64,000 nucleotides of DNA from Candidatus Altimarinota bacterium (GTDB lineage Bacteria > Patescibacteriota > Gracilibacteria > BD1-5 > UBA2023), in the NCBI GenBank assembly GCA_024709505.1, contig JANJWP010000003.1, forward strand, positions 4,767-68,766. The letters are read 5' to 3'. Below are positions 1-64,000 of this stretch, piece by piece; within the stretch, counting starts at the first letter, position 1, and each line of letters starts with the position of its first letter. Below the pieces are notes generated by a model that worked only from the letters and a program-made list of their open reading frames with translations, searched no databases and had not been told where the DNA came from. Both the position numbers and the translations under genes were made by a program.

Positions 1-55
1 ACCACCGACCTCAGGGGTATGAATCCTGTGCTCTAACCAGCTGAGCTACATTGGC
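1..55 (-). tRNA. tRNA with CAU anticodon (Met, or Ile2 if lysidine-modified). Only the 5' two-thirds is present; the 3' end lies outside the window.
   Basis: The reverse complement reads GCCAATG/TA/GCTC/AGCTGGTTA/GAGC/A/CAGGA/TTCATAC/CCCTG/AGGTC/GGTGG. This gives the acceptor strand, D arm, anticodon arm (one A-C mismatch), a 5-nt variable loop and the start of the T stem. Anticodon CAT corresponds to plus-strand atg at 19-21. Confidence 0.8.
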
Positions 56-164
56 GTGCCGGGGAATTATAAGCGAAAACCCGGACTGTCAAGGCGAAGA
101 CCACGAATTCGGGGGTCTATCTCAGATAGTTGCATTCGTCCCGGACTCCGCTATCATTGCGACC

Positions 165-644
165 ATGGACGCCCAAAACGCTTCTTGCCAAAAATCCAAA
201 ATCCTTCGGCCTACAAACGGCAGGAAGGGCGAGACCCTTGTCGCCGTAGTCGTCGGGGCCGTAATTCTCGCGCTCGCAATCATGGGACTCGCCTCAATCC
301 TTTCCGGAAACTCGACGCTCGAAGCCGAATACGAAAAAAATCTCCGGGCGTTTCTGTTGGAGCGCAATACCGAGACCGTTTTACGCAAAATCCCGGTTCG
401 GGCGGTTAGCGTGGGACAGGAATTCTTTTTGGAAAAAAACGTCGTTGAGAAACGGTTCTCCATCTTGACCGGAGAAGACTATTCGGACTTCCGATTCGTA
501 AATGATCGGGGCGAAATCCAAGATCCAAGCCGGCCCGGAACCTATCGGAGAACTCTTGTGTTGGAGCAATCCCCCGATATGAACGGCTTCCTCGGGCAAT
601 CCGTAAAAATCGAAGTGGACGAAGTTTTACCCGGAAATCCGTAA
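165..644 (+). CDS. Hypothetical membrane-anchored protein with a hydrophobic, pilin-like but non-canonical N-terminus
   Basis: ATG at 165 inside track ORF 51..644; the upstream part of that ORF overlaps the tRNA. GRKGETLVAVVVGAVILALAIMGL resembles a prepilin leader plus helix but lacks Phe+1 and Glu+5. TAA stop at 642-644. Confidence 0.5.
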   Translation: MDAQNASCQKSKILRPTNGRKGETLVAVVVGAVILALAIMGLASILSGNSTLEAEYEKNLRAFLLERNTETVLRKIPVRAVSVGQEFFLEKNVVEKRFSILTGEDYSDFRFVNDRGEIQDPSRPGTYRRTLVLEQSPDMNGFLGQSVKIEVDEVLPGNP

Positions 645-655
645 CCCTTTTTTTT

Positions 656-979
656 ATGAAATTCGAAATCCAACCGAAACGGTTCTTCCTTTGGACCTAC
701 GTCGCTCTCTCAGCCGCGTTCATCCTTCATGACGTCGCGGTCGATTTCCGTGACGGACTCCTGAAAAAGGTCTACGAATCGGGGAAAACCGATACCATCA
801 ACGCCCTTATCGCGAACGTTGACAATGGAAAATGCGAAGCCGTCAACGTGTATTCCGGGGAAAAGAAGGTCGATCTCATAAACGTGGCATGTTTGAGCGG
901 CGTCGGAAATCAGACTTCATCGACATCTCCGGAACCATTGCCGGAACTTCCCGTTTCGCAAACGGGGACTTCCGACTAA
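656..979 (+). CDS. Hypothetical small membrane protein
   Basis: ATG ORF of 107 aa with an N-terminal transmembrane (TM) segment FFLWTYVALSAAFIL. TAA stop at 977-979, overlapping the convergent gene's stop. Confidence 0.5.
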   Translation: MKFEIQPKRFFLWTYVALSAAFILHDVAVDFRDGLLKKVYESGKTDTINALIANVDNGKCEAVNVYSGEKKVDLINVACLSGVGNQTSSTSPEPLPELPVSQTGTSD

Positions 980-1773
980 TCGCGAATGCAGACGTAGGTA
1001 TACGAAGCGCTCGCGTCGGACGCGTTGCATATCCCCCGCCCGGAAACGTAGGACGAATATCCGGTCGGGCAGTTTTGTCCGCCGGTTTTCGGATTGTTCA
1101 ACGCGGGGCAGTTCGTACTCGGGGTCGTGAACGTTCCTCCGAAAATTTCTCCCCATTCCGAGAGGCAATTCCCGTTCAGGCACGTTTCGATCGCGTTCAC
1201 CGCTCCGCTCACGCTGAGCCGAAAGCTTCCAGGAACCGTTCCAATTCCGACGTTTCCTCCATCCGGCGCGGCGGCGATGCTCGGATTGGCATACGAAGAA
1301 CCGACGTAATAATACTGCATCGAGTCTCCGGATCCGAGAAATCCGAATCCCCCAAGACTGGACCCCGAGTGCCCCTCGGCCAAATATCCGAACGTCCATC
1401 CGCTTGCGTCCCCTTGGGTTACGATCGATCCAGAACCCCCTCATATGCGGATGGGCCGCGAGTATCCCGCATCGAAAACCGAAGCTCCGGAAACCGACAA
1501 CGCCGCCGAAGACGTAAGCGCGCCGATTCCCACGCTGCCTCAGGAGAATGAAAACGTCGAAACGCGCGCGTCTAAATCAACGAGGCTATCGATGACCTTG
1601 TTCCAGAGTGTGGCGGTAAGATTTTCGGTTCCTCACGCCCTCGGATAGGCGTAGTCGGAGTCGGAAAAAGACTGGAACGCGCCATATCCCGCCGAAACGG
1701 CGAAAAGCACCGAAGCGAAAACGAACGCCGAGAAGGCCGAACGCCGGGCGGAAGTCTTAAATTTGGAAGCCAT
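976..1773 (-). CDS. Secreted Gly/Ser-rich protein, 265 aa, with 3 sense UGA codons
   Basis: Track ORFs 976..1383 and 1633..1839 are in one frame and are joined through TGA at 1441, 1540 and 1633. ATG at 1773. N-terminus MASKFKTSARRSAFSAFVFASVLFAVSAG is signal-like. TAG stop at 976-978. Confidence 0.7.
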
Positions 1774-1790
1774 AAAAAGAAGGTGACGGG

Positions 1791-3053
1791 CTATTCCGGA
1801 ACGATGCAGGCTCACTCTATCGGTCAGCCCCACGTCCACTCGCAGGCGGGCGGATTGGGAAGACCGGGTTTCGGAACCGAAAAATCAAGGCTTTTCGAAC
1901 GGTAACTTCCAGCGGGATCGACGATGACGTCCACGCCGTGGAACCGAATCGTTTCCGGACGCGAGTCGTCAATCGCGGCGACGTAGGCCAAAGTTCCGGT
2001 GGCAGTTTCGACACCAAGGGAATACTTCAGGTGCGTCCTTCCTTCCGAAGCCCCTTCCGGATACGAGAAGAATACGGCGAAAGAGCGGTTTTGAAAATCG
2101 AACGGCTTAGCTCCGTCGCCGGACGCCCTGCTCCCGGAAAGCGAGAGATCGTTTTGAAGGTATCCGGTCCCCGAAGCGATGCCCGCACGCTCCTCGGAGG
2201 CAATGGCAACGAGTTGTCCGGCTTCGGCAAGCGCTCCGGTGTCGAATTCGACGACCCGCACCGAAAAAGTCCCGTCGGCGGATATCCGGAGATACCCTTC
2301 GGAAACCTCCCCCAAACGAATGAACGGAGGATCGGCGTTATGGGGGTTTTTTCCGATGGTCGCAAGGGTTTTCGGGGAATTCCAAAAGGCGTTCTGCCAC
2401 CCCGCTCAAAAACGAACCATGCCTACGACGCCCGTCCTGGCGCTGGCATCGTCGTCGAAATAGCCGGAAGGATAGGCGATCGAACCGGTCGATCACGTTC
2501 GAAAATCGTCGGAATCGAGATTGCTATCGAATTCGGAAAAATCGGGGGGCAACCCAAAACTAACGAACGTGGCGTCCGGATCGGAAAAAGTTCCGGAGAG
2601 AGTTTGGGCGCTCCGCGAGGGATTCATGTCGAGCGAATTCGAGTATGATCCGGTGGAAAACGTGGAAAAATCCTCGGAATATTCGAGTACGAACGGAATG
2701 CCCGAAGAAGGGGTCGCTACGCAGGCGAGATTTCCGCTCAAAACCGCCGCTTCGGCGGGAACCGCTTCAATCGACGAGCCTTCGACGGTTCCGCTGAAAA
2801 CGACGTTTTCCGGGCACTTCCGGGCCGGCGAAAATCCTCACCCGCTCGAATTCGCCGCAATCGACCAAGCGAACGCGGCATCGGCCTTGGCCGAAAGGTT
2901 CTTCGACATTTTGGAGTCGTAGGTCTGAAACCGGAGGTTTTCAAAAAGGATTTCCGACTTTGAGAGATACAGGTATCAAAGCCCCATCGCCAAAACGGTG
3001 AGGAATATGGCATAAGCGAGGACGTTCGCGTCCCGGTTCCGGAAATCGGCCAT
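1791..3053 (-). CDS. Membrane-anchored extracellular protein, 420 aa, 6 sense UGA; downstream of a pilin gene
   Basis: Track ORFs 1824..2315 and 2493..2741 plus the intervening stretches share one frame. In-frame TGA at 1812, 1824, 2406, 2493, 2838 and 2976. ATG at 3051-3053, then TM VLAYAIFLTVLAMGLGYLYL. TAG stop at 1791-1793. Confidence 0.65.
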
Positions 3054-3058
3054 GGAAT

Positions 3059-3661
3059 TTAAAATACGACGTTGACGGATAGGGGAAATTCGGGGATTTC
3101 GAATTCGGGCCTCCCTATCCATTCATCCCTATGGGAAGAATAAAAAGACAGTTGGATATCGGCCAAACTTCCCGAATTGTATTCTTCGGCCGAAAGCGAA
3201 GCCATCGAAATGCCTTCGAACGCCGATTCCGGATAAAGGGGGACCGAAAAGGCGGTTTGAGGTTCGAAAAGCACCGCCCGAACCTGCGCGGAAGTAAGTT
3301 CCTGTCCGATGAGAAACCGTTTCCTATAGGTTCCATCGGACACCGAAACCAACCGGTATTGCGAAGGCGCGTCCCCCTCCTCTGCCACGCCCAAAAGGAT
3401 TCAGGCGGTCTTTCCGGAATTGGTGAACACGGCGTAGTCGAAAGATCAGGAACCGAAAACGCGTACCGATGGAAATACCGAAGAAACCGTTGCGAGCTTG
3501 GAGAGCGCATCGGTAAGGGAAACATGGGTTTGGCTCCTCGTTTTAGCCAAAGAAAGCGCTTCGACGGCGCGTGAGGCCAAGCCAATCGTCCCTCCGAGCA
3601 ACGTCGCGGATATGGCGATTGCCACGACGATTTCGGAGAGCGTATAGCCCCTTGTTTCCAT
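3059..3661 (-). CDS. Type IV pilin-like / pseudopilin protein, 200 aa
   Basis: The N-terminus METRG|YTLSEIVVAIAISATLLGG matches the prepilin cleavage/methylation motif G|(F/Y)TLxE followed by a hydrophobic helix. Track ORFs 3059..3394 and 3446..3661 join through TGA at 3401 and 3446. TAA stop at 3059-3061. Confidence 0.8.
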
Positions 3662-3802
3662 GAAACGCGACGATTAGGTTGGTCTTTGCCCGAAGATGGT
3701 ATCGGAACTGCGGCGGTTTTCAAGAAACCATGGGTGGAAATGCCTTGCGAAAAACCGTAGGTACCGCATACTGTGGAAGATTTTTTCCTTTTCCACTCGA
3801 AA

Positions 3803-4585
3803 ATGCCGGGCGTAAAATTTTCCAAATCCGCCTTTTCCCTCATGGAAATCGTCGTGTCGGTGGCGATTTTGGGAATCCTTTCGCTCGTGGGAATCCTTTC
3901 GTATTCGGAATCCTTTTTTTCCAGCAAGGACGCGGTTCGGATTTCGGATCTCGAACGAATTCAGGCAGCCCTCCGGAACGAAAAGCAAAAGGGCGGAGCC
4001 TATCCGAAACCCGGACGTTCCTTCGCGCTCGTGGCCTCGGGAGCCTCCAATCCCGTCGCCCATCAGGGAATCTTCGATTCGAAAGCTTGCGGCGACAGTC
4101 TTTCGGGCGTTCCGACCGATCCGGTCACGAAACTCCATTATCCGTATTCGGTTCGAACGGGTCAGCAAACGTACCAGGTAGCCGCCATACAGGAAGAATC
4201 GGAGACGCGGGCCGTCGTTCTTGGGGATTACCTGCCCGCCGCCCCAACGGTTCTCCCTTCCCTCCTTGTGGCCGTTAACGCCGAACCGGGAACCTGCGTC
4301 GAAATTCGCGACGGAATTTCGGGCGGATGCGGGAACGGTTCGGAAAATCGGAAAAAATTCGTTTTGAACGGAAGTCGATCGAACCTCCCTTACGATGGAG
4401 ACGGACAGCCGTTCTCGGGTGCCACGAGCTTTGAAGAGGCCTTTTCCTGATCGGGAGTTTCCACTCCGGGAAACCCACGGCATGGGGATTGCGGAGAAAT
4501 CCGGGAATCGGGCGATTACGTCGGAAGCGGCGAATACCGCATCGTGGACGAATGGGGAACCAAACAAACGGCCATTTGCGAATAG
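3803..4585 (+). CDS. Type IV pilin-like protein, 260 aa
   Basis: MPGVKFSKSA|FSLMEIVVSVAILGILSLVGIL is a prepilin-type leader with Glu+5. ATG at 3803 inside track ORF 3773..4450. Reading through TGA at 4448 gives 44 more codons to TAG at 4583-4585. It is divergent from the minus-strand pilin operon. Confidence 0.75.
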
Positions 4586-7440: not shown

Positions 7441-7830
7441 TCAGGAATTCCCGGTGAGAAGGTTGCCCGCCACGTTGCGGTTGAGCGTGAGACGGAAGCG
7501 GGTATGCCCCTCGCCCACGACCGTGAGCGTGAGAAGTCCGGAGTCGATGGCGTACCGAACGAAATCGCGCCAGACCGGAAACGTGCGCTCGCTCGGACGG
7601 ACCGCTTCAAGCGAATCGGGATCAGTGTCGGGAAAGTCGCGGATTTCGAATTTCGCATCATCCGAAACCAGATCGCTGACCTTGGAAGGCTTCTCCACCC
7701 CCTCGTGGGAAACCACGAGGAGCAGGTATTTGCGGTCGGAGAGAAGGGCGTTGACGGCCCCAAGGGCGACGCTGCGCAAATCGGCAAGCTGGGACTCGGT
7801 CAGGTTTTTTCGGACCAGGCTTTCGCTCAT
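7441..7830 (-). CDS. Hypothetical protein, 129 aa; apparent stop is UGA
   Basis: ATG at 7828-7830 preceded by AAAGGAA. The ORF ends at TGA 7441-7443. Under strict table 25 the next in-frame stop is TAG at about 6748, across two terminators and another gene (see findings). Confidence 0.6.
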   Translation of the reverse strand: MSESLVRKNLTESQLADLRSVALGAVNALLSDRKYLLLVVSHEGVEKPSKVSDLVSDDAKFEIRDFPDTDPDSLEAVRPSERTFPVWRDFVRYAIDSGLLTLTVVGEGHTRFRLTLNRNVAGNLLTGNS

Positions 7831-8619: not shown

Positions 8620-10323
8620 ATGAAACGGATTTGGAACGATATCTCGCTCCGCACGAAATTCATGCTGCTGGCCGGCATGCTCATCGTCATCATCATCGGA
8701 CAGGGGACGGTCGGCGGGTTCGCCGTGAAATCCTACTTCGAAAAAACCGAAGCCGGATACGAACAGGGTACCGTGCCAATCCGCATCATCGGTCAAATAC
8801 TTGAGCGGATGTCCGATAACCGCGCGCAAGTGTTCGGCGCCCTCCAACACAACCCGGCACGGGAAGAATCCCGATTTCATGACCATCCGGTTTCCGAGCA
8901 CGTCAGAAGCATCGAGAAAAACGTCGAGCGGATAAACGAGCTCATCGAAGAATACAAAAAGCATCCGGTTTTCCCGGAAGAAGCGGCGCTCCTGAAAGAG
9001 TTCGAAGAAAAGCGTTCGGCATACGCCATGAAGATTTTGCGCGCAAAATCGAACCTGAACGAAGAGCTCTGGATGGAAACGGCCGCACTGCTTCGCGAAA
9101 TCAACCAAAACTACGAAGCCGCCCGGCAGGCCGGGAACGCTCTCTCCAAATTTTTGGAAGGGCGGGCGGAAAAAAGCGTCATCGCCAACCGCGAAGACTA
9201 CGAATTGCGAGTGCTCATGACGATCGTCGGAGTTCTCGGATCGGCCGTTTTCGGAACGGGCATCAGTCTCATCACGATCGTTTCGTTCCGTTCGCGAATC
9301 GGAAAACTCACCGAGATGGTCGCGAACGTCGAGCGATCCAAAGACCTCACCCTTCCGGTGTCGATCAATGGACGGGACGAAATCGCGGGAATCGCGAAGA
9401 GCTTCGAGAGCCTCGTTGCCGCGGTTCGGGAAAGCGTTGGCGAAATAAAGCGCGAAGCGTCGGAAGTAGCCCAAGGGACCGAAGGAATCCGGTCGGCGAC
9501 GAAGGAAATTCAATCTTCCAACGGCTCGCTCTCCGATTCCGTCGCCCAAAGCGCCGCCACGAGCGAAGAACTCTCGGTCAGTATCGCCGAGGTCGGGGCG
9601 GGCGCCCACGCCGTGAGCGAACTCGTCGGCAACGTCACGAGAAAACTCGTCTCGGAAAGTGCTGCCGAAGTACGAAAAGCCGTCGAGGAACTGGGAAACG
9701 CTTCGCATGCGGTACACCGTTCTGACGCTGAAGTGGAAGAACTGTTCCGTGCTTCCGAAAAAATCGGCCGACTGGCCGATTCGATTGGAAATATCGCGCA
9801 ACAAACCAATCTTCTCGCTCTGAATGCCGCCATCGAAGCGGCGCGGGCGGGCGAGGCCGGGCGGGGATTCTCCGTCGTTGCCGACGAAGTCCGGAAGCTT
9901 TCGGAACACACTTCGCAAGCGACGAAAGAATCCATTGCCGCCATTGCCGACATCCAACACCGGATGGGCGCGCTCCGGGAAGTCATGAAAGAGAGCGTCT
10001 CGCAAATAGAATCGGGCGAGACAATCGGAAAAACGGCGGTAAAAACGCTGGCGGAAGCAGAAAAAAGCAGCGGACAGGCGGCTGAACAAGTCGCCGAGAT
10101 GTCGGCGGCAGTAAACGAGCAGGTTCGGGCCGTCGAAGGACTCTCAAATCAGCTCGAACGCATTGCGGCGGCTTCGGAAGAAGCCAGTTCACAGGCGCGC
10201 CTTTCCTCCGAACTGACCGATCGAGTCCATCATGCCACCGCTTCCTTGCGGAATGCGGTAGACAGATTCAAATCGTGACGGACAAAAGCCGACCTCCGGG
10301 ATTTTCCCGGAGGTTTTTTTTAA
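8620..10323 (+). CDS. Methyl-accepting chemotaxis protein
   Basis: SD AAGGAG 7 nt before the ATG. N-terminal TM, a second TM plus HAMP-like region, and the highly conserved signalling hairpin [36 protein letters not shown]. The standard ORF ends at TGA 10276-10278. Table 25 adds 14 codons to TAA 10321-10323, running through the terminator. Confidence 0.9.
10293..10321. terminator. Intrinsic terminator shared by MCP (+) and proB (-)
   Basis: CCTCCGGG-ATTTTC-CCGGAGG followed by an 8-T run and then an A run. Confidence 0.75.
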
Positions 10324-10335
10324 AAAAAGGGCGGG

Positions 10336-11157
10336 CTATGCCATAATCGAGGTTCCTCCCCTTCGGGACGAAACGTCTTCGACGTGTTCGAGCAAGGTCG
10401 AATCAACCCCGTTGAAAATATGTGCCCGTATTCCGTCATTGGCGGCGTCTCGCGCGACGGTCAATTTCGAAGCCATTCCGCCCGTTCCGGATTTCGATTT
10501 TCCGCTTCCGCACATCCGGGCGATATCCTCATCCGAAAGCCTTGCCGCATGGAGCGTGGAAATACGCGAATCGGGGCGGTCGGCATGCCGGTATACCCCA
10601 TCGGTATTCGTAACGATGGCCAAATGTTCGGCGTTTACCATCCGGGCGATCAGGAGGGCGTTTCGATCGTTATCCGCTCATTTTCCAAGCGCGACGATTT
10701 CTTCGGGAGTGGCGAAGTCATTTTCGTTGAGAATGGGAAGCGCTCCGAAATTCCAAAGCCCCTCCAAGCCCGACATGAGTCCGTTCGAATGCGAAGAATC
10801 GGATTCGATCTGCGCGTGCGTCACGAGTCCTTGCCCTACTAAAACCGGCGGATTGCACGAAGCGAAAAGCGCTTCCCAATTGGACATGAGGCGGTGTTGT
10901 CCTATCGAAGCGAGCGCTCGGCGGTCCTCCAGCGTAAGTTCCCGGTCTTTCGGAAGGTTTTTCGCCTTTCTCCCCTGGGCGACGGCGCCAGAAGAAACGA
11001 GGACGACCCTGCGACGGACGTGCGTAATGAGGTGCGATATTTCAAAGGCCAAACGGGAAAGTTTTTCGCGAGCCCGAGGCGAGTCGAAGTCGGCGGATTC
11101 GGAACCGACTTTCACGACGATGGGAGCGGCGGCGTGTCGGGAGCGTTGGGCGTTCAT
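10336..11157 (-). CDS. proB: Glutamate 5-kinase (short form without PUA domain)
   Basis: Track ORFs 10336..10641 and 10678..11157 are in one frame, joined at TGA 10678. Motifs VVKVGS, VLVSSGAV, NEND, and [UGA=G]ADNDRNALLIA matching the conserved GDND(T)LSA. TAG stop. Confidence 0.88.
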
Positions 11158-11222
11158 GCGGAAGGACTGAGAGGAAAATTGTGTGCGGAGGCGGATTCCG
11201 TTCGGAACGCCGGGAAGATGCC

Positions 11223-12806
11223 TTACTCCTCCTGCGTTTTTGGCCGCATGAGCGGGAAAAGCACGACGTCGCGGAGATTGTTTTGTTCCGTAAGAAGCGC
11301 GATGATCCGATCAACTCCCATGCCCCAGCCGGAAATCGGCGGCATGCCGTATTCCATGGCCCGGACGAATTCAGCATCTCCGGTCATTGCCTCCTCGTCA
11401 CCCTCTGAGAGGGCCTTCTCTCCAGCAGCGAAACGCTCCGCCTGGTCGATGGGATCGACGAGTTCACTGTACGAATTGACGAGTTCCCACCCATTCACGA
11501 CGAGCTGAAAGGCGTCCGCATGGTGGGGACGCTCGTCATTGCGTCGGGCGAACGGCTTGAGTTGAATGGGATAATTGTAGAGGAACGTGGGATTGACGAG
11601 CTTGGGGCGCGACATCTTCTTGTAGAGGTAGTCTATGAGCGTGGTGAGCCCCATCTTGTCGGCACCTTCGATGGCAATGCCCTTCGCCGCGATGTCGGCA
11701 CGGAGTTTCTCCACGTCGTCATACGCTGAAACGTCGATACCGGTATCGCGTTTTACGAGTTCGATATAATCTTCGCGCTTCCACGGAGTGGTAAAATCGA
11801 CGTCAACGAGTTCGTTCTGCTTGTTCCGGATCTTGCGCTTGCGTTCGAGTTTCAGTTCGTCGAAGAGATAATCGAACATCTTTTCGGTAAAGGCCATGTT
11901 ATCGCGAAAGGTCCAATACGAGCAATTGTGTTCGAGGTGGAGGTGCTCGGGAAGGTGCGAAGGATCCTGGCCTTCGTTGCGGAACGCTTTGCCAAGTTCG
12001 AAAATCTTCTCCATGCCCGCGATATTCAGAAGCTTGAGCGGGATTTCGTGCGATATTCGCAAAAACACGTCGATGTCGAGGGCTTCCTGATGGGTGACAT
12101 AGGGTTTCGCGGCAGCTCCGGTGGCCGCGTTCGTAAGAACTTGTCCTTCGATTTCGACAAATCCCTCCTTCCAATAAAATTCGCGGAGCTTGCGGACGAA
12201 ATCGCTTCGGAAACGAAAACGCTTCATGACCGCATCATCGGAAATGAGGTCGAGATAGCGTTGGCGGTATTTGGCTTCCTCGTCGGCAAGGCCGTGGAAT
12301 TTTTCTGGGAGCGGGCGGAACGCCTTGCCAAGGAATTCAACTTCGGTGGCAAAAACGGTTACCTCCCCCTTATGGGTGCGGAACGTCTCCCCGCGAACGC
12401 CGATAAAATCGCCCAAATCCACGAGCTTCTCCACGAATTTGAAAGCCGTGACGACATCTTCGAAAGGGCCGACGGAATCACGGATTTCGCCTCCGACGCG
12501 AATCTTGCAATTATCGCGGGAAAACATGACCTGCACACGACCGGTATCGTCTTGCAAATGGGCGAACGCGATCTTTCCGAAAGAACGGAAAAGCACGACG
12601 CGACCAGCAAGGGAAACGTCGGTTCCGGAAGATGCCATTACTTCTTCCGCAGTGCGGAATTCCTTTCCTTCAGCATCCGCAAGAACGCGTTCGGCCGAAT
12701 GGGTTTTTAAAAACGTTTCCGGATACGCGGGAACGCCAAGGGAACGGATACGGCTTAAACGGGCGAGACGAACGCTAAATTCGTCATTCGCGACAGGAAT
12801 GGTCAT
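11223..12806 (-). CDS. lysS: Lysine--tRNA ligase, class II
   Basis: 527 aa with an OB-fold N-domain and class II motifs (FRNEG..., ELVNSYSELVDP, EYGMPPISGWGMGVDRIIALL). TAA stop. Confidence 0.93.
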   Translation of the reverse strand: MTIPVANDEFSVRLARLSRIRSLGVPAYPETFLKTHSAERVLADAEGKEFRTAEEVMASSGTDVSLAGRVVLFRSFGKIAFAHLQDDTGRVQVMFSRDNCKIRVGGEIRDSVGPFEDVVTAFKFVEKLVDLGDFIGVRGETFRTHKGEVTVFATEVEFLGKAFRPLPEKFHGLADEEAKYRQRYLDLISDDAVMKRFRFRSDFVRKLREFYWKEGFVEIEGQVLTNAATGAAAKPYVTHQEALDIDVFLRISHEIPLKLLNIAGMEKIFELGKAFRNEGQDPSHLPEHLHLEHNCSYWTFRDNMAFTEKMFDYLFDELKLERKRKIRNKQNELVDVDFTTPWKREDYIELVKRDTGIDVSAYDDVEKLRADIAAKGIAIEGADKMGLTTLIDYLYKKMSRPKLVNPTFLYNYPIQLKPFARRNDERPHHADAFQLVVNGWELVNSYSELVDPIDQAERFAAGEKALSEGDEEAMTGDAEFVRAMEYGMPPISGWGMGVDRIIALLTEQNNLRDVVLFPLMRPKTQEE

Positions 12807-12941: not shown

Positions 12942-13532
12942 ATGACGGACAGGGAAATGCTCGCGAAAGCCCGGGGACTTGCGATTTCGCTCGTCGAAAA
13001 AGTCGATCACTACCAGTACCACAACGTGGGACATACCTTCGACGTTTATTCCCGAACTTCCTACCTGGCGGACATGGAAGGGGTTTCCGAAGAAGAAAAA
13101 ACCGACCTGCTCATTTCGGCGTTGTTCCATGACGTGGGTTTTTCGGTAACGTATCCGCAAAACGAAGGCATCGGCGCCGACATCGCCGAAAGTTTCCTTC
13201 GGGAAAACGGGCATCCTGAGGAGCGCGTCGCCCGGGTTCGCAGAATCATTTTGGCCACCGTCCTTTTTTCAAAAACGGGCGACCTGCTCGAAAAAATTAT
13301 TCAGGACGCCGATCTCGATAATCTGGGAAGAAAAGATTGCCTCCTCCGGACCGACGCCTACCGGAGGGAGCTCCAAACGCATTCCCCCACCCCGTTCGAC
13401 GAAGCGAAATTCCTCGATTTCACGCAGTATTTGCTCGGAGGGGCATTCACGTTCCAAACGGAAACCGGGAGGCGTGAACGGGAGGAAGGGAGACAGAAAA
13501 ATTTGGAGGCCTTCGTCGCAAGGTACCGATAA
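12942..13532 (+). CDS. HD-domain metal-dependent phosphohydrolase
   Basis: 196 aa. H..GH (HNVGHTFDV), HD (ALFHDVGF) and DADLDNLG motifs. TAA stop. Confidence 0.75.
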   Translation: MTDREMLAKARGLAISLVEKVDHYQYHNVGHTFDVYSRTSYLADMEGVSEEEKTDLLISALFHDVGFSVTYPQNEGIGADIAESFLRENGHPEERVARVRRIILATVLFSKTGDLLEKIIQDADLDNLGRKDCLLRTDAYRRELQTHSPTPFDEAKFLDFTQYLLGGAFTFQTETGRREREEGRQKNLEAFVARYR

Positions 13533-13535
13533 TGA

Positions 13536-13561
13536 AAATCCGGGGTATCCCGGATTTTTTT
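13536..13561 (+). terminator. Intrinsic terminator after the HD-domain gene
   Basis: AAATCCGGG-GTAT-CCCGGATTT followed by a T run, immediately after the stop codon. Confidence 0.75.
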
Positions 13562-13626
13562 CGAACCCGAATTTTCGCGAGGGGAAAAACGGGTATACTC
13601 TTGGGGAATCTCCAATCCGAAAACGC

Positions 13627-15621
13627 ATGCGAAAACTCTTCCGGTTCCTTCTTTTCACGACGCTCCCCCTCGCGATTCCGGCTTCCGTTCAGGCCGGAGG
13701 TTTCGTCTATCCATTCGACCAGATTTCGGCGACTTCGTGCAAATGGAATCCTTGGTCAAGCCTTAACGACGACTGCAAGATCGATTTGCCTCGAATTTCG
13801 GGGGCGAACTATTCGCAGTACGAAAAAAACCAGCTCTACCGACGGGTATACACCGTGCTTTGGGGGGCGACCTACGACTACGGTTGGGACGTCGGACTCG
13901 GCAGCCATCTGGGAGTGGATATCGCGACCTCCGCGGGAACGCCGGTTCGGTCGATTGGGGACGGAAACGTCGTATATGCGGGATGGTCGAACGGATGGGG
14001 AAACGTCGTGACGATAAAACACGTCCTCTCGGATAAGGCCGTCATCTATTCGAATTACGCGCACCTTTCCAAAATTCTCGCGAAAAACGGGGAAGTCGTG
14101 CTCGCGGGCCAAAACGTCGGGGAAGTTGGAAATACCGGGAATTCCTATGGGAACCACCTCCATTTTCAAATTGACGTGACCAATCAGGCACATCCGTACT
14201 ATTACGTTACTTGCGGAAAGGGTCTTGATCCCCTCTCGGTCGTGAACAAGGGGCTTTGTCAGGACTTCCTCAAACTCAACACCATCGATCCGATCGCGTT
14301 CCTCGAGAGCGGGAAGGTCGCGATTCCGGGCGAGGCGACTAAGGCCGTCATCGAAGCGGTAAAAAACCGTCCGGTTGAAAAAGTGGACCGTTCCAAGATG
14401 AAGACCCGTGCGGAAATCCAACAGGAAGAAATCCAAGAATTTCTCAAATCGAACAACATTTCCATAAATCTTTCCGATAAGGGAACCAATGTCATGGCCG
14501 GAAGCTCGATATGGTCTTCGGTAACGTCCGGGAACGTTCAGGGAAAGGCAACGCGGGGCAATTTTCCGGAAGCTGGACTCGATCTCGTTTATGACGCTTC
14601 GGCGCTTTCGGTATTTCCCGAAAAAATCGTCGCGCTCGAGGGCGGAAAACGCGAATTCCGAGTTACGGCCAAAAAGACCGGGGCTTTTGAAATCGCCTTT
14701 AAGATGGGACAAACGGTCATTGCCAAAAGAACGATCGTCGTCCTTTCCAAAACCGACGCGGAAAAACCCGCGACCGCCGAAATCCGCGCCCCGAACGACA
14801 TCGTTCTTGGAGAATCCAAAAACGTGCTCGTCATCATGAAGAGCAAATACGGGACCCCCCTTCTCGACTCAAAGTTCGAAGGACGCTACGTTCTCCGGGT
14901 ACTCAAGGGCAAAGCCAAATTCTGCAACGCCTCGAAAAACGAAGTGCAAAACTGCCGGACGGAAAAACTCTCCGACGAACTCGAATTCACCTACGAAGAT
15001 ACCTACCGATGAGCCCTCCAAGCACAAATTCGGGCATTCGCTTACGCTCCGATATCGCTTCAACTGGTTCGAATCGATCTTCCGAACCGGCCTTCGGTCA
15101 CGAGATTGAACCGCGACATCAGCGTAACCGCGCCGAAAGGACTCGACAATACCTACGCCTACTATGCCGAAAACGTCGCAGCGCTGCAAAAGGGATGGTT
15201 TCCGACAAAGGACGGGTACCTGCTCCAAAACCGCGAACTCGTCGGAAGCGGAGCAAAAGAACTCATCCGACGCTATCTCGGGTACCGGTGGCTCAAAGCC
15301 GGAAATGACTTCGCCAAAAAGAAATCCGTCGGGGCCGACATCGTGCGGTTCGAACGGGATTTCGGAAAAACCGACGATTTCGCTCGAATCACCCGCGGAC
15401 AATTGGCCGGACTCGTGTTCGAATATAAAAGGGAGCCCATTTCCACGTCAGGCGGAACGCCATTCGTTGACGAGGGAGGCGCTTGGCGCGACGTCATTGC
15501 CACGCTCAGGATTCGTTACAGCTTTCAATGGAAGGACCAGTTCGGCGCGAGATATTTCCAACCGGACAAAACCGTTACGGTAGGAGAAGCGCTCTACTTA
15601 ATGGAAAAAATCGGAGAATAA
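13627..15621 (+). CDS. Secreted M23/LytM-family metallopeptidase with a long C-terminal extension, 664 aa
   Basis: ATG at 13627 gives the signal peptide MRKLFRFLLFTTLPLAIPASVQA. M23 motifs HLGVDIA, GNTGNSYGNHLHFQI. Track ORFs 13474..15012 and 15106..15621 are in frame through TGA 15010. TAA stop. Confidence 0.85.
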
Positions 15622-15650
15622 GCGCGTTTGGGGAGTTCGTGCAAAATAAA

Positions 15651-15678
15651 AAAACGGCTCCCGCTTGGAAGCCGTTTT
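15651..15678. terminator. Intrinsic terminator between the M23 gene (+) and pyrE (-)
   Basis: AAAACGGCTCC-CGCTT-GGAAGCCGTTTT (one bulge) flanked by A and T runs. Confidence 0.75.
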
Positions 15679-15702
15679 AAAACGTCGTCTCGAAAAAGAA
15701 AT

Positions 15703-16491
15703 TCAGGAACCCTTGGAATAATCGGCGCCGTAGAGGCGGCGGTAATCCTTCATCGCCTCGATGATTTCGCCGACCGGATCTTCAAGGGACGGGCCCTCGG
15801 GAACCGATTCGAGCCGCGCGAGCAAATCGTCGAAGGTTGCGATGGCATGGACCGGAATCCCGTATTTGGCGCGAGCCTCCTGAACGGCTGAAAAATCGCC
15901 TTCCTTGCCTTTTTCCATGCGGTCGAAGGCAACCACGACCCCGTGGGGAATCCCTCCGGACGCGCGGATGATTTCGATGGCTTCGCCCACGGCCGTTCCG
16001 GCCGTGATGACGTCGTCAACGATGAGCACCCGCTTTTCCGCAAGCTTCGCCCCAACGATGTTTCCGCCTTCGCCGTGGTCCTTGGCTTCCTTTCGGTTGA
16101 AGGCCCACGGCTTGTCGCGACCGAACTTGCGAAACAGCCCGGCGGCGGCATGGGTCGCCAAGGGAATTCCCTTGTAGGCGGGGCCGAAAATGACGTCGAA
16201 GTCGCCGTGGGTTTCGAAATAGCCGCCGAAGCCGAAAGTCGAGTGCGCGGCGGCGGAACGCTCGTCGGGATAGAGGGAAGCGATTTTTTCGGCGTAGAGC
16301 AATCCAAGCTCCCCGGATTCGGAGCCGGTGCAAAAACTGCCGAAGTTGGCGAAATACGGCGAGACCCTTCCGGATTTCAGCGTGAATTCGCCGAACTTGA
16401 GGACGCCCTTGGCCAACATGAAGTCGAGCAGGCGGACGGCGACGGATTGGGGAAGCTCTTGCGGAAAATCCGCACAAACATCCATGACCAT
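15703..16491 (-). CDS. pyrE: Orotate phosphoribosyltransferase; apparent stop is UGA
   Basis: ATG at 16489-16491 preceded by AGGAAA. PRPP-binding loop VLIVDDVITAGTA. C-terminus ...YRRLYGADYSKGS is typical of the family, followed by TGA 15703-15705. Table 25 would add 34 codons through the terminator to TAA 15598-15600. Confidence 0.9.
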   Translation of the reverse strand: MVMDVCADFPQELPQSVAVRLLDFMLAKGVLKFGEFTLKSGRVSPYFANFGSFCTGSESGELGLLYAEKIASLYPDERSAAAHSTFGFGGYFETHGDFDVIFGPAYKGIPLATHAAAGLFRKFGRDKPWAFNRKEAKDHGEGGNIVGAKLAEKRVLIVDDVITAGTAVGEAIEIIRASGGIPHGVVVAFDRMEKGKEGDFSAVQEARAKYGIPVHAIATFDDLLARLESVPEGPSLEDPVGEIIEAMKDYRRLYGADYSKGS

Positions 16492-16511
16492 GACTGTTTC
16501 CTTTCTCCGCT

Positions 16512-17366
16512 TCAAGCGGAACGGGCGTTGCGATAATTGGAACGGTGGAGATTGATTTCGTCGCGGGTCTTCCCCGCTGCGGCCGCCACGTCCTTGGCGT
16601 AGATGATGCCCCGCGAAGAGTTGATCATCATGCCGAAGCCGTCGGAATCCTGTCCGGCCTTGACGGTCGCTTCGACGTCGCCGCCCTGGGCCCCGATTCC
16701 GGGAACTAAGATCGGCATGTCGCCGACGAGTTCGCGAACGCGGGCAAGCTCCGAAGGACGGGTCGCGCCAACCACGAGGGCCATGCGATTCCCCCCATGA
16801 CGAGCGTTGAGTTCGGCCATCCTGCAAGCGACCTGCTCATAGAGCTTGAGGCCGTTATTCAAGACGAGGTCCTGAAAGTCGCCCCCACCGGGATTGCTCG
16901 TGCGGCAAAGCACGATGACGCCCTTGTCCTCGTATTCGAGGAAAGGTTCGAGCGTATCGAGTCCCATGTAGGGATTGACGGTCACCGCGTCGGCGCCGAA
17001 TCGGACGAAGGCCTCTTCGGCGTATTTCTCGGCGGTATTGCCGATATCGCCGCGTTTGGCGTCGAGAATCACGGGCGTTTTATAGTCGCGCTGGATGCGG
17101 GAGATGAGCATCTGCAGTTCTTCTTCCTTTTCGTAGCGGGAAAAGAAGGCCGCGTTCGGTTTGAAGACCGAAGCGTGCCTGGCCGTAGCCGAAACGGCGT
17201 CGAGGCAAAAGTCGGCAATGACGTCACGAATGGCCGGATTGGCGAATTCGCTGCCGCGAGCCTTGGCAATGGAAGCGTAATCGGGATCGAGTCCGACGCA
17301 GAGAAGCGAATTTTTACGTTCCTGCGAGGCGCGGAGTTTCTCAAAAAATGAACGGGGTTTCGTCAT
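16512..17366 (-). CDS. pyrF: Orotidine 5'-phosphate decarboxylase (type 2); apparent stop is UGA
   Basis: 284 aa with LCVGLDP, ILDAKRGDIGNT and VGATRP motifs. Ends at TGA 16512-16514, 20 nt before the out-of-frame pyrE ATG. Confidence 0.9.
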   Translation of the reverse strand: MTKPRSFFEKLRASQERKNSLLCVGLDPDYASIAKARGSEFANPAIRDVIADFCLDAVSATARHASVFKPNAAFFSRYEKEEELQMLISRIQRDYKTPVILDAKRGDIGNTAEKYAEEAFVRFGADAVTVNPYMGLDTLEPFLEYEDKGVIVLCRTSNPGGGDFQDLVLNNGLKLYEQVACRMAELNARHGGNRMALVVGATRPSELARVRELVGDMPILVPGIGAQGGDVEATVKAGQDSDGFGMMINSSRGIIYAKDVAAAAGKTRDEINLHRSNYRNARSA

Positions 17367-17499: not shown

Positions 17500-19464
17500 C
17501 TACCACTTCTCCGATTCGCGCAATTCGTCGCGGAGCTCGGAAATTTTATCGCGGAGCTCGGCGGCGAGTTCGAAGTCGAGGTTCGACGCGGCGACGTCCA
17601 TTTCGAGTTCCAGGCGCTTCAAGACTGCCCGCGGATCACCGGAATAATCGGTTTTTCCTATTTTTTTGCCCTTGAGTCCGATTTCCTTGATGCTCGAAAC
17701 GATAGTTGTCGGCGTTATGCCATGAGTCTCGTTATACGCTTCCTGCACGGCTCGGCGGCGTTCGGTTTCGCCGATGGCCTTTTCCATCGCGGCGGAAATC
17801 TTTTTCGCGTGGGAATACATGACGACCCTTCCGTTAGAATTGCGGGCGGCACGACCGATAATCTGTAAAAGCGAGGAAACCGAGCGGAGAAACCCCACTT
17901 TCTCGGCATCGAGAATGCCGATGAACGAAACTTCGGGCAAGTCGAGCCCTTCGCGAAGGAGGTTCACCCCCACGATGGCTTCGATTTTTCCGGTTCGCAG
18001 GTCACGGAGGATTTCGAGACGTTCGATGGTTTCGATTTCGGAATGGAGATAGCGGACCTTTACGCCATTTCCCGCGAGGTATTCCGCCAATTCCTCCGAC
18101 GATTTCTTCGTCAGCGTCGTAATGAGAGCGCGCTCGCCTCTTGCACGGACCTCTTTCAGATTCCGCATGATCGAATCGGCCATGAATTCCATGCCTTCGA
18201 TCTCGATCTTGGGATCGAGGAGTCCCGTAGGACGGATGATTTGTTCGGCCACGACCGACGAACGCGAAAGTTCGTACTCGGCAGGAGTTGCCGAAACGCA
18301 GACGGTCTGGGCGATCTTTTTCTCGAATTCCTCGAATTTGAGCGGTCGGTTCTCCATCGCGGAAGGAAGCCGAAATCCGAAATCGACGAGATTTTCCTTT
18401 CTCGACCGGTCGCCCGCGTACATTCCTCCGATTTGCGGAATGGTAATGTGCGATTCGTCAACGAAGGTCAAGAAGTCTTCCGGAAAAAAGTCCAAAAGGG
18501 TCGAGGGGGTTTCTCAAAATCCCCTGCGGGAAAGGTACATCGAATAGTTTTCTATTCCGTTAACGTATCCGACCTCGGTGAGCATCTCGATATCGTATTC
18601 GGTTTTCATTTTGAGCCGTTCGGCTTCGACCAAACGGCCGTTCTCACGGAAAAACCGAAGCCGTTCTTCGAGTTCGGCGCGGATTTTCGGAACGATTTCC
18701 GCTACCAGCTCGGGCGAGGTAACGAAATGCTTAGCCGGAAACACCGTAACCGTTTCAACCGCCTCCAAAACGCGGTTGGTAACGGCTTCTTTCCGGACGA
18801 TATTTTCGAGTTCGCCGTCAAAAAACGACAGCGACCAAAACGTTTCCGACGAGGCCGGAAAGATTTCGAGCTGATCTCCCATGACGCGAAACGATCCGGG
18901 GAGGAAATCGGCCGTCGCGCGACGGAATTGGAGCGCCACGAGAGAATCGAGAATCGATTCGACGCGGTAATTTTCGCCGACCGAAAAACGGATCCGTCCC
19001 GAGCCGTAATCCTCCTTCTCGCCGATGCCGTAAATGCACGAAACCGACGCGACGATAATGACGTCTCGCCGGGAAAGGAGGCTTTCGGTGGCCGCATGGC
19101 GGAGACGGTCGATCTCTTCGTTGATGGTCGCTTCTTTTTCGATGTATTGGCCCGTTTTGACCACGAATGCCTCCGGCTGGTAATAATCGTAGTAGGAAAC
19201 GAAATAATGAACGGCATTGTCGGGGAAGAATTCTTTGAATTCCTGGGCCAACTGGGCGGCGAGGGTCTTATTGTGCGCGATGACGAGCGTTGGGCGCTGC
19301 AACCGCGAAATCACGTTCGCCATCGTAAAGGTCTTTCCCGACCCCGTAACACCAAGGAGGGTCTGACAGCGGTTGCCCACGGAAATGGATGCGCAAAGGT
19401 CGTCGATGGCCTTCGGCTGGTCTCCCGTAGGGAAATATTTGGAAGCGAGGCGGAAGGGGTACAT
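17500..19464 (-). CDS. uvrB: Excinuclease ABC subunit B
   Basis: Track ORFs 17500..18495 and 18514..19641 (from ATG 19464) are in frame through TGA 18514. Motifs GVTGSGKT, YSMYLSRRGF[UGA=G]ETPSTLLDFFP, VDESH, and a C-terminal UVR domain. TAG stop. Confidence 0.95.
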
Positions 19465-25312: not shown

Positions 25313-25345
25313 TGAAGGAAGATTCGGGTTGACCAGCCCAAGCCC

Positions 25346-25873: not shown

Positions 25874-25902
25874 CGGGCGGAAAACGTCCTTTTTCTCAAA
25901 AT

Positions 25903-55120: not shown

Positions 55121-55834
55121 ATGATAGGGTTTTTCGATTCCGGAATCGGAGGACTTACCGTTCTCGCCGAGTTCCGGAAACGCTTTCCGGATTTTGATTA
55201 CGCCTATTTCGGTGATCGGGCCAACTGCCCATACGGCGATCGCGAGGATGAAGAAATCGTCGATTTGACCGAACGCGGAGTCGAGAGGCTTTTTCGCGAG
55301 GGCGCCGAAATCGTCATCCTCGCGTGCAATACGGCCACCGTCCATGCGATACGCTACCTGCAACAAGTCCGGTTTCCCGAAAAAAAGATTTTGGGCGTCA
55401 CCATTCCGGGCGCCGAAAAAATCGTCGAATCGGGATACCGCCACGTCGGAGTGCTCGCGACCGAATGAACCGTGCGGATTCGGGCATATAAAGAACGGGT
55501 CCATATTTTGGACGATTCGGTTTCGGTACACGAAATCGCGGTTCCCGAACTCGTCCCCCTGATCGAACGGGGCATCGTCGGTGGCGAAGAAGTGCGCGAA
55601 ATCCTCGCGGCGAAGACGTCGCAATTCCAAAACATCGAGGCGCTCGTGCTCGGATGCACCCATTATCCCCTCGTTCGAAAAGAAATCGAATCCTTGCTTC
55701 CGGGAATCGAAATCGTCGATCCGGGCGAAGAAGCCGCAAAAAAATTCGCTTCTTACCTAGAGCGACACCCCGAAGTAGAAGCGAAGATCTCAAGAGGCGG
55801 AACCCTTCGGATAAACTATTCCGAACCCACCTAA
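55121..55834 (+). CDS. murI: Glutamate racemase
   Basis: Track ORFs 55121..55468 and 55472..55834 are in frame through TGA 55466. Motifs FFDSGIGGLTV, ILACNTA, VLATE[UGA=G]T, LGCTHYP. TAA stop. Confidence 0.92.
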
Positions 55835-60891: not shown

Positions 60892-62277
60892 ATGCAAAAT
60901 TCGAACGGAACCCCTTCCCATCTCCACGTAGTGGGCATCTGAGGCATCGGCGTTTCAGCCGTAGCCCGCTATTACCGACAATCCGGATGGACCGTTTCCG
61001 GTTCCGATGGATCGGAATCAGCCATCACCCGAGCCCTCCGCGCCGAAGGAATTCCCGTATCCATCGGACACGACGAATCAAACGTTCCCCAAAACCTCTC
61101 GCTTCTCGTCTATTCGGAAGCCGTCGTCACGAAGCCCGATCTTCCCAAAGAAGAGCAGGTGCTCTCCAATCCGGAAATCCGGAAATCGCACGAAATGGGT
61201 GTCCGACGGCTTTCCTATCCCGAAGCGCTCGCCGAACTCTTTAACGGCAAATGCGGGATCGCCGTATCCGGAAGCCATGGAAAATCGACTACGACGGCCA
61301 TGATCGGAACGGCGTTGGTCGAGTCGGGATTCGGGGGTTCGACGGTCGTTGGAACGCAAGTGCCCCAATTCGGCGGAAAAAACGGGCACTTCGAACCGAA
61401 AAGCCCCGTCTTCGTCATCGAAGCATGCGAATACCGGAGATCGTTTTTACGCTACGAACCCGAAATCGCCGTCATTACCAATATCGATCTCGACCATCTC
61501 GACTATTACCGCGACTTAGAAGATTACCTTCAGGCGTTCGAAGCCTTTCTTTCCAGAACCCGGAGAGCGGCGATATTTTCGGCCGATTGCGAAAATTCCC
61601 GGAAGGTCGCGTCATCGGATGGCGCGTCGCACTTGGAAAAATATTTCGTCGATAAGGACGGCTTCGTCGGACCGGACGGAACGCGCACGCCGTTGCCGCA
61701 AATGAAACTCGCCGTTCCGGGCGAACACTTGGCGCAAGACGCCCGGCTAGCCTACGTCGCGCTCCTGCTTGCGGGGGTTCCCGAGGCCGACATCGCTCCG
61801 GCGCTCGAAAAATACCGCGGCTCGTGGCGGAGGAGCGAAGTCATCGGAACGACGGAAAACGGCAATCTGCTCGTCTCCGACTACGGGCACCATCCTTCCG
61901 AAATTCGTCCGACGCTTGAAGCGTTCAGGGACAGATATCCGGACAAGACGCTCTTCGTCACGTTCCAGCCGCACCAACACTCGCGAACCCGCGAACTCCT
62001 CACGGAGTTCGCGTCGGCATTCGATGCCGCGGACGAGCTTCTCGTTCCCGACATCTATTTTTCGCGCGATAAAAAGGAAGACGTCGAATGGATGACCGTA
62101 AAACGGCTTCTCGACACCCTGAAAACCCGCTATCCGAACGTTCGGGGAGGACGGGGACTCGATGCCGCGGCCGAAGAAATCGAAGCCTTCGACCGGAAAA
62201 ATCCGGGAAAAGCGGTCTTCGTGCTCCTTGGGGCGGGAAATATCGATGACCTGCGGTACCGACTCGTAAAAACCTAG
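60892..62277 (+). CDS. murC: UDP-N-acetylmuramate--L-alanine ligase
   Basis: ATG 60892 gives MQNSNGTPSHLHVVGI[UGA=G]GIGVSAVARYYRQSGWTVSGSD, in frame with track ORF 61159..62277 (GSHGKSTTTAM, DLDHLDYY). UGA at 60940-60942. TAG stop. Confidence 0.92.
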
Positions 62278-63447: not shown

Positions 63448-63473
63448 CGCCCCCTTCATGAGGGCGTTTTTTT
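63448..63473 (+). terminator. Intrinsic terminator after the GNAT-like gene
   Basis: CGCCC(C)-loop-GAGGGCG hairpin followed by TTTTTTT, starting about 20 nt after the TGA. Confidence 0.65.
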
Positions 63474-63497
63474 ATTCCCGAAGCGCTAAACGCATTA

Positions 63498-63525
63498 TTG
63501 ACAATGTAGGAAAAGTTGATACTAT
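63498..63525 (+). promoter_or_regulatory. Consensus promoter for the lipoprotein gene
   Basis: TTGACA (63498-63503), 16-nt spacer, TACTAT (63520-63525). AAGGAGG follows at 63551-63557. Confidence 0.55.
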
Positions 63526-63562
63526 CAATCCGTCTCAACCGCTTTTAGAAAAGGAGGAAGCC

Positions 63563-63802
63563 ATGGGACGCCTATCCCTAACCGCGTTGGTATTAGCCGT
63601 GGTACTCGGCGGTTGCGCGAACGTGGAACCGAAAAATTCGTCGGGATACGACGGCGAACGCACGGGACCCCTTACCAACTATTCGACCTACCCGGCACCG
63701 ACCAAACCGCCCTATCGCGACACCTACGTCGTCCAAACCAAGGGCAAGGGCGCCAAAGTCGTCGTGGACGAACGTTACGAGCCGAGGCCCGCGAAGCGGT
63801 AA
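63563..63802 (+). CDS. Small lipoprotein, 79 aa
   Basis: AAGGAGG 5 nt before ATG 63563. MGRLSLTALVLAVVLGG|C has a lipobox (L-G-G-C). TAA stop. Confidence 0.75.
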   Translation: MGRLSLTALVLAVVLGGCANVEPKNSSGYDGERTGPLTNYSTYPAPTKPPYRDTYVVQTKGKGAKVVVDERYEPRPAKR

Positions 63803-63832
63803 CCTCTCTCGGAAAGCGTCCCTTTCCAACGC

Positions 63833-63859
63833 AAAACCCCCTCATCCGAGGGGGTTTTT
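63833..63859. terminator. Intrinsic terminator
   Basis: AAAACCCCCTC-ATCC-GAGGGGGTTTT plus extra T residues. Confidence 0.8.
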
Positions 63860-63891
63860 TCGAATATCCGTTCGGACGGACGTCCTCCCTG

Positions 63892-64000
63892 ATTAAGCTT
63901 CTTTGTTCGGCGCGGCTTTCGACGCGGTTACGGCCGCACGCTCGACTTCGGCACCCTTGCGGACATAGTTGAAGAACACGTTGCGGAATCCATTTCCGGC
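63892..64000 (-). CDS. C-terminal end of an unidentified CDS running off the window
   Basis: The minus-strand frame reads ...GNGFRNVFFNYVRKGAEVERAAVTASKAAPNKEA and then TAA at 63892-63894. Too short to name. Confidence 0.4.

Follow-up and report, generated by a model that had tools for sequence, protein, structure and literature searches.

The 64,000-base stretch of contig JANJWP010000003.1 analysed here (the window) carries the genes recA, prfA, uvrB, murC, proB, rsmA and dnaJ, among others, whose reading frames contain the codon UGA (TGA in the DNA), together with four accessory genes, ORF129, MCP, pyrE and pyrF, that have a stop-like TGA at their ends. The meaning of this codon, within genes and at gene ends, is the subject of the present analysis. 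The window has a guanine-plus-cytosine (GC) content of 54.4%, at which calling the longest open reading frame (ORF) fails because antisense shadows remain open. The gene models were built with a codon model trained on a few secure genes, each frame being scored against the other five and the starts being chosen afterwards, and they were cross-checked with Pfam, with related genomes and with translation table 11 genes called on Logan contigs that had been assembled independently from the same organism. The resulting 46 genes (18,726 codons) contained 51 in-frame TGAs, 47 of which were sense-like, corresponding to 2.5 sense TGAs per 1000 codons and to 3.1% of glycine codons; when these genes were read in their two other frames, TGA appeared about 13.7 times per 1000. 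In-frame TAA and TAG were restricted to the terminal codon position, where 44 were present in the 46 models. When TGA was dropped from the stop set, stop-to-stop ORFs of 300 aa or more in the six frames increased from 43 to 103, whereas dropping TAG or TAA instead gave only 57 and 56, respectively; the strong gain is thus tied to TGA. Table 11 splits 24 of the 46 genes, and the code thus governs all annotation of the window; gene calls in its public relatives depend on it as well. A preliminary description of this DNA, prepared from its letters and ORFs, had reported such a fragmented standard-code ORF track, about 47 sense UGAs and a series of protein families broken by them. The fragmentation and the count were borne out by the gene models, all 13 of its positions proved to be in-frame TGAs on the strand given and within the peptide quoted, and Pfam agreed on every family, the returned match coordinates spanning the TGA.

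The residue at internal UGA codons

The identity of the encoded residue was evaluated first against solved structures, with the TGA masked as X in nine proteins. Gly was found opposite the masked position in five of the nine families (RecA, RF1, UvrB, MurC and the GGDEF cyclase), the other four being variable positions occupied by Asn or Met in MurI, Thr in RsmA, Val in ProB and Ser in GT4. The earlier proposal that each TGA sits at a conserved family Gly thus held for the first five families and failed for the latter four when judged by solved homologues; yet at the RsmA and ProB sites, non-Gly in those homologues, Gly is present in close relatives. The murI codon lies at a variable position and is uninformative on residue identity; no relative covers the region.

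The second line of evidence was obtained from the clade itself. LysRS, which has no TGA in the window, was used as a query and returned seven related genomes (L003−L009, 69–91% identity), and the window genes of the first 25 kb were aligned at codon level with their orthologues in these genomes. Across the window and its seven relatives, TGA stood against a sense codon in 110 columns, with Gly as the partner in 65; where the flanks were at least 50% identical, the proportion was 47 of 66, compared with a Gly−Gly baseline of 0.79. A likelihood computed over all 20 amino acids, with an empirical substitution table taken from the clade alignments, gave −84.6 for Gly and −204.9 for the next residue, a difference of about 120 log units. 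Neither Trp nor Cys was found as a partner in any of the 110 columns, the Gly-to-Trp pairing frequency in the clade alignments being 0.003. UGA occurs about once per gene in conserved domains and exchanges freely with GGN among the relatives; it is rare in the window (3% of Gly codons) because of the 54% GC, and the lower-GC relatives use it much more. Glycine is strongly supported for the 47 internal codons, and Trp, selenocysteine (Sec) and stop are excluded for them, in agreement with what the preliminary description had read from the letters, namely that UGA is glycine and that Trp (table 4) and Sec do not fit.

The individual sites are collected in Table 1. In the gene at 1791–3053, GGA and GGC are the counterparts of the TGAs at 2976 and 1812, respectively, and the TGA at 1824 is also TGA in L003, the homology running past it to a common TAA/TAG end. 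Six TGAs each were found in the proteins encoded at 25852–30627 (+, 1591 aa) and 41366–44959 (−, 1197 aa) and two in that at 38599–41253 (−, 884 aa). No Pfam domain was found in the 1591-aa and 1197-aa proteins. A database search with the former returned no homologue, low-complexity words having probably filled the candidate list, and the latter, used as a query against the genome collection, had no exact 8-mer in common with any relative.

The stretch at 976–4585 holds fast-evolving genes that are 33–50% identical to L003, versus about 90% for core genes; two of them, at 3059–3661 and 3773–4585, have pilin-like hydrophobic N-termini, which together with pilC (~22765–23973) suggests a type IV pilus system. 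An HSP20 gene at 22173–22601 (−), called on a Logan contig with a Pfam match, lies outside the 46 models; it is hidden because the pilC ORF extends spuriously upstream if only TAA and TAG count as stops.

Table 1. Positions of TGA codons, prfA and tRNAs in the window, with the gene concerned and the counterparts found in structures and relatives.
Feature	Position	Strand	Gene	Context and counterparts
recA, sense TGA	34337–34339	-	33404–34396	EKQF-[UGA]-AGSIMRMG; Gly opposite in Escherichia coli RecA and in RecA chain 8s70; structural contexts 'qfGkgsimr' and 'qfGkgavmr'
prfA (RF1), release factor for UAA/UAG	24001–25083	-	24001–25083	Pfam PCRF and RF-1
prfA (RF1), sense TGA	24394–24396	-	24001–25083	RAS-[UGA]-AGGQ, directly before the GGQ motif; Gly in 4v4r_AY 'rasGpggq' and 1zbt 'hasGaggq'; GGT in L008
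uvrB, sense TGA	18514–18516	-	17500–19464	Pfam UvrB; Gly in three UvrB structures; TGA in L003 and L005, GGA in L008
murC, sense TGA	60940–60942	+	60892–62277	VVGI-[UGA]-GIGVS; Gly in three MurC structures, 'vgiGgagm'
Diguanylate cyclase, sense TGA	37197–37199	+	36066–37526	First G of the GGEEF motif; Pfam GGDEF; Gly in three structures, 'ryGgeef', 'ryGgdef' and 'rfGgeef'
proB, sense TGA	10678–10680	-	10336–11157	Pfam AA_kinase; Val in E. coli ProB; GGC in L003 and GGT in L005, with a flank identity of 0.88; GTT in L006
rsmA/ksgA, sense TGA	20624–20626	-	20348–21163	Pfam RrnaAD; Thr in solved RsmA chain 6ifw; GGA in L003 and L005, AGC in L008
murI, in-frame TGA	55466–55468	+	55121–55834	Asn/Met in solved glutamate racemases
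GT4 glycosyltransferase, in-frame TGA	31890–31892	+	30690–32162	YEGF-[UGA]-LPVLEAMA; Pfam Glycos_transf_1 spans the TGA; Ser in the sole solved homologue above threshold
FNR-like oxidoreductase, in-frame TGA	32627–32629	-	32159–32839	Within the FAD_binding_6 match; NAD_binding_1 also matched
pilC/T2SSF, sense TGA	23125–23127	+	~22765–23973	Pfam T2SSF; GGG in L008; two pieces (120 and 245 aa) under table 11 calls
dnaJ G/F region, in-frame TGA	35626–35628	-	34819–35913	FF-[UGA]-GGFQSGGS; product matches Pfam DnaJ, DnaJ_CXXCXGXG and DnaJ_C
dnaJ G/F region, second in-frame TGA	35695–35697	-	34819–35913	QPE-[UGA]-TGFSGGGF
M23 peptidase, sense TGA	15010–15012	+	13474–15621	GGA in L003, L005, L007 and L008; TGA in L004
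Hypothetical protein, sense TGA	2493–2495	-	1791–3053	Six TGAs in the gene; GGC in L003, flank identity 0.88
Exceptional in-frame TGA	21636–21638	-	21165–21893	RVILDLEF-[UGA]-KTDKEAEA
pyrF, stop-like TGA	16512–16514	-	16515–17366	OMPdecase profile complete (2–219 of 221)
pyrE, stop-like TGA	15703–15705	-	15706–16491	12-bp terminator hairpin at 15678–15651, 25 nt downstream
MCP, stop-like TGA	10276–10278	+	8620–10275	11-bp hairpin at 10291–10315 and T-run, 15 nt downstream
ORF129, stop-like TGA	7441–7443	-	7441–7830	Translation ends ...LLTGNS*; 12-bp terminator at 7408–7382, ~30 nt off
tRNA-Leu(CAA) and tRNA-Ser(CGA)	25226–25436	+		The window's only complete tRNAs (ARAGORN, Rfam)
tRNA(CAU), 5' part	1–55	-		Cut by the window edge (Rfam alignment)

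Termination and the decoding of UGA

For nearly every gene common to the window and a relative, the two ORFs share their end point, a TAA or TAG, and UGA is therefore no terminator of the core genes. The product of prfA was compared with the PDB and was found to match RF1 (E = 8e-102) far better than release factor 2 (RF2; about 1e-50). Since an in-frame UGA lies directly before the GGQ motif of RF1, the remaining release factor could not be made without decoding of UGA. In established code-25 bacteria, the reading of UGA as Gly is accompanied by a tRNA-Gly(UCA) and by the loss of RF2 (Campbell 2013; Rinke 2013; as summarised in PMC13293708 and PMC8629427). In the best-supported reading, UGA in the window is translated as glycine (NCBI table 25) and termination takes place at UAA and UAG only; by analogy with these organisms, the decoding would be due to a dedicated tRNA-Gly(UCA) with the glycine identity elements G1:C72, C2:G71, G3:C70 and U73, charged by GlyRS, and RF2 would have been lost. 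The gene prfB was not found beside lysS in the window, which is uninformative, since the comparison loci seldom show the two genes side by side.

The Logan contig L216 extends 4.7 kb past the left edge of the window, where two tRNA-Met(CAU) and one tRNA-Pro(CGG) were detected with ARAGORN, one of the former being the complete form of the tRNA cut at positions 1–55. A pattern for tRNA-Gly(UCA) was run over 596 Gb of genomes and gave 53 matches, none of them in the relatives' assemblies; the scan is uninformative because nearly all known code-25 genomes were missed as well. Almost all of the matches were due to chance or unrelated, and only three were real, namely those in L187 (a recoded locus), L192 (Patescibacteria) and L172 (an archaeon). 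The tRNA(UCA) of L192 (JBAZTY010000004.1, 44% GC; 507–580, −) has the glycine identity set and a body like that of tRNA-Gly(GCC). The 8-kb L192 locus contains six real genes without any TGA, internal or terminal, and it could be that UGA is nearly unused in that genome.

Four accessory genes with a stop-like UGA

UGA had been described as a glycine codon throughout the window; this stands for the 47 internal codons and not for the stop-like TGAs of four accessory genes, which lie where the gene architecture ends them. The TGA of pyrF at 16512 is followed by GGAGAAAGGAAAC and then by the pyrE ATG in another frame; past this TGA the coding score is −20.8 and the next in-frame TAA/TAG is 305 codons off. 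In the pyrE frame, the next TAA (15598) lies beyond the terminator hairpin. The MCP gene has an orthologue in L005 (forward about 13905–15876, −) with 45% identity. A TGA common to the two genes marks the end of the homology; a terminator hairpin lies within about 15–35 nt of it in each, the tails are unalignable and neither gene contains an internal TGA. For ORF129 (129 aa), neither a Pfam match nor a homologue in the relatives was found, and L005 lacks the gene at the corresponding site, where its two flanking orthologues lie next to each other. No internal TGA was found in the 1227 codons of the four genes, compared with about three expected. In a coding-filtered survey of gene ends with a TGA plus a terminator, L005 had three more, and L003 and L006 had none. 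The stop-like TGAs have no common sequence context; the base after them is C, A, A and T.

The pyrF−pyrE pair (15706–17366, −) differs from the rest of the window in composition, with GC values of 0.59–0.60 against a gene mean of 0.543 and third-position values (GC3) of 0.72–0.74 against a mean of 0.624 (0.62 ± 0.04). At the syntenic site of L003, uvrB and the M23 gene are adjacent and pyrFE is absent. The best matches of PyrF were in Burkholderiales and Zoogloeaceae (54–59%), with no match from the clade, and an exact look-up of the 284-aa protein returned no record. Bacteria of this kind have been reported to serve the window's group as hosts or prey. The uvrB−pyrF−pyrE adjacency is independently present on the Logan contig L219 and is therefore no assembly chimera. 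Within about 15425–16062, the M23 gene (in its 3' part) and pyrE each contain the end of a Logan contig from the same sample, a pattern that would be compatible with strain-level differences at the border of the pyrFE insertion.

The composition, synteny and affinities of the pair suggest that pyrF−pyrE was probably acquired by horizontal transfer. For ORF129, MCP, pyrE and pyrF, the most likely origin is importation from donors with the standard code, the original UGA stop having been kept, because all four lack an internal TGA, a terminator or a Shine−Dalgarno sequence and ATG directly follows the TGA, pyrFE are composition outliers, the syntenic sites of pyrFE and ORF129 are empty in relatives, and PyrF has its affinities elsewhere. 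The imported genes would be read through in the host, with non-homologous tails of 14 (MCP), 34 (pyrE), 305 (pyrF) and more than 200 codons (ORF129), or alternatively with read-through to the end of the transcript. Taken as a whole, the reading of UGA as Gly under table 25, with termination at UAA and UAG and with these four genes as standard-code imports, is considered highly probable.

Several observations weigh against it. No tRNA with a UCA anticodon was found in the window, in its 4.7-kb left extension or in the fetched loci of the relatives, a search that covered only about 5% of a genome. At 21636–21638, within a context that is 94% identical, the relatives carry AAA (Lys; L003 and L005) or CGT (Arg; L008), the clearest non-Gly column among the well-aligned TGA columns, the others being Ser at 1540 and Asp at 2406. 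Finally, the window and L005 share the MCP TGA, each with a terminator after it, although their MCP proteins are only 45% identical (55% divergence). This observation, the only one for which importation does not comfortably account, fits a working stop better than a neutral Gly, unless the two MCP genes were separately acquired at a variable locus, in which case the common TGA would be reconciled with importation.

The MCP case also speaks for the alternative that UGA is dual, being glycine within genes and a working stop at some gene ends according to context, such as a close RNA hairpin. This alternative would account for the four window genes in which a TGA stands where homology or operon layout ends and is followed by a terminator or by a Shine−Dalgarno sequence and ATG, for the three further gene ends of this kind in L005, and for the position of the next in-frame TAA/TAG within or past the terminator, by which read-through transcripts would be left without a stop. 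It was nevertheless judged unlikely, with only a slim chance of being correct: no core gene common to the relatives ends in TGA; internal UGAs average about one per gene, so that half of the proteome would be cut short if termination at this codon were appreciable; the four genes are free of internal TGA, and the absence of pyrFE and ORF129 from close relatives points to a foreign origin; and no shared sequence context sets the stop-like TGAs apart. Next to no credence was given to the reading of UGA as Trp (table 4) or Sec, or to a standard-code genome whose interrupted genes are pseudogenes or result from sequencing errors. In favour of these readings, table 4 restores the ORF lengths exactly as table 25 does, and a recent preprint (10.64898/2026.05.24.727570) describes Patescibacteria lineages in which UGA has become Trp. 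Against them, Trp and Cys are missing among the 110 partner residues and Gly is found in five solved families; the 47 sites are spread over 24 genes (including recA, prfA, uvrB and murC), too many to be all Sec sites or lesions; the Rfam scan returned no selenocysteine insertion sequence (SECIS) element; and independent Logan assemblies carry the same TGAs. Trp, Sec, pseudogenes and an assembly chimera were accordingly rejected, on the alignments and on the Logan contigs L001, L216 and L219, which independently reproduce the window sequence, its TGAs and the uvrB−pyrF junction.

Recoding has been proposed to hamper the expression of foreign DNA as a 'genetic firewall' (PMC8080830). With UGA read as glycine, the four UGA-ended accessory genes are concrete candidates for this effect, as standard-code imports that would be read through at their stop. 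If UGA instead acts as the stop of these four genes, they would, to our knowledge, provide the first bacterial example of a stop codon that depends on its context. The imported UGA-terminated genes are one of two modestly interesting extras of the window, the other being its GC-rich, mislabelled lineage.

Lineage and comparison with known codes

In a neighbour-joining tree of LysRS, the window was placed in a clade with L003−L009. The fetched stretches of its high-GC members, L003−L007 and the window, have GC values of 0.52–0.59, whereas L008 and L009 have 0.42 and 0.38, respectively. Under table 11, the ORF density was 0.72 for L008, 0.55 for L009 and 0.16 for L083, the only relative returned by a GroEL query (the pattern matches being otherwise saturated with unrelated bacteria), and it rose to about 0.95 with TGA read through. 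In L003−L007 the ORF density hardly collapses, yet in-frame TGAs stand opposite window Gly codons; stop-to-stop ORF density as a test of recoding works at low GC, as in L008, L009 and L083, and is nearly blind at 54–59% GC, the gaps being filled there by long spurious ORFs. The LysRS genes contain no TGA in the window, three in L008 and eight in L009, so that the use of UGA rises as GC falls. The L009 LysRS ORF (locus ~10001–11980) runs 151 codons past the end of homology, an extension that may be a fused C-terminal domain.

The deposited labels of these relatives are in conflict: L003, L006 and L008 are named 'Candidatus Peribacteria', L009 (STL-PAT4) and L083 (STA_93) 'Candidatus Gracilibacteria', and others 'Patescibacteria group'. 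Other Peribacteria-named loci (L030, L038 and L040) showed no recoding, were 46–49% identical and lay far off in the LysRS tree; other Gracilibacteria-named loci were likewise without recoding and elsewhere in the tree. The source would be an uncultured bacterium of the Patescibacteria (Candidate Phyla Radiation, CPR), within the Gracilibacteria/Absconditabacteria/Peregrinibacteria group, and the lineage label of the window is uncertain, given its GC-rich nearest genomes and the conflicting NCBI labels. In current accounts, table 25 is confined to the GTDB class JAEDAM01. A 2026 preprint on gTranslate flagged the orders GCA-2401425 and JAYELJ01 (GTDB class Gracilibacteria, Peregrinibacteria side) as table 25 without RF2, and a placement there would account for the Peribacteria labels on the window's relatives. 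The clade is possibly a GC-rich member of GCA-2401425 or JAYELJ01; the sole JAYELJ01 locus compared, L052, was not close to the window in the LysRS tree. A low-probability reading would put the clade on the side of the Peribacteria, beyond the class to which code 25 classically belongs; UGA as Gly would then be older than thought or have arisen twice. In practical terms, relatives deposited as Candidatus Peribacteria or Patescibacteria group default to table 11, and their public proteins are probably fragmented.

Compared with the organisms of table 25 (Gracilibacteria BD1-5/GN02 and Absconditabacteria SR1; JAEDAM01), the window is alike in having UGA at Gly positions, core genes that end in TAA or TAG and an RF1 gene, and it likewise belongs to a small-genome CPR bacterium whose nearest recoded relatives include metagenome-assembled genomes of Candidatus Gracilibacteria (L009 and L083). 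It is unlike them in composition, the recoded genomes of the Codetta study having GC values of 0.21–0.53 (PMC8629427) and the window and its closest relatives 54% and 52–59%, respectively, and also in that UGA makes up only 3% of its Gly codons and that several relatives are labelled Candidatus Peribacteria or 'Patescibacteria group'. The clade extends code 25 to 54–59% GC, where AT mutation pressure cannot explain the retention of UGA, and its UGA use drops as GC climbs. Candidatus Peribacter riflensis, with 58.5% GC and a genome of about 1.25 Mb (Anantharaman et al. 2016, PMC4736985), resembles the window clade in its high GC and bears the same NCBI label as L003, L006 and L008; the Peribacteria were taken as having been treated as standard-code because that paper makes no mention of genetic code, UGA or stop codons. 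The UGA-to-Trp codes (table 4) of Mycoplasmatales, insect endosymbionts and some Minisyncoccia involve the same codon and have the same effect on ORF calling, the residue here being Gly. Unlike the Absconditabacteria variant in which CGA and CGG are read as Trp, the window uses both codons commonly (CGG 18 and CGA 7.7 per 1000 codons), and their partner in the relatives is Arg (0.55 and 0.63), with Trp outside the four commonest partners; this additional reassignment is therefore absent. Code 25 being already known, the finding is not new in kind, and what the window represents is a new, GC-rich member of it.

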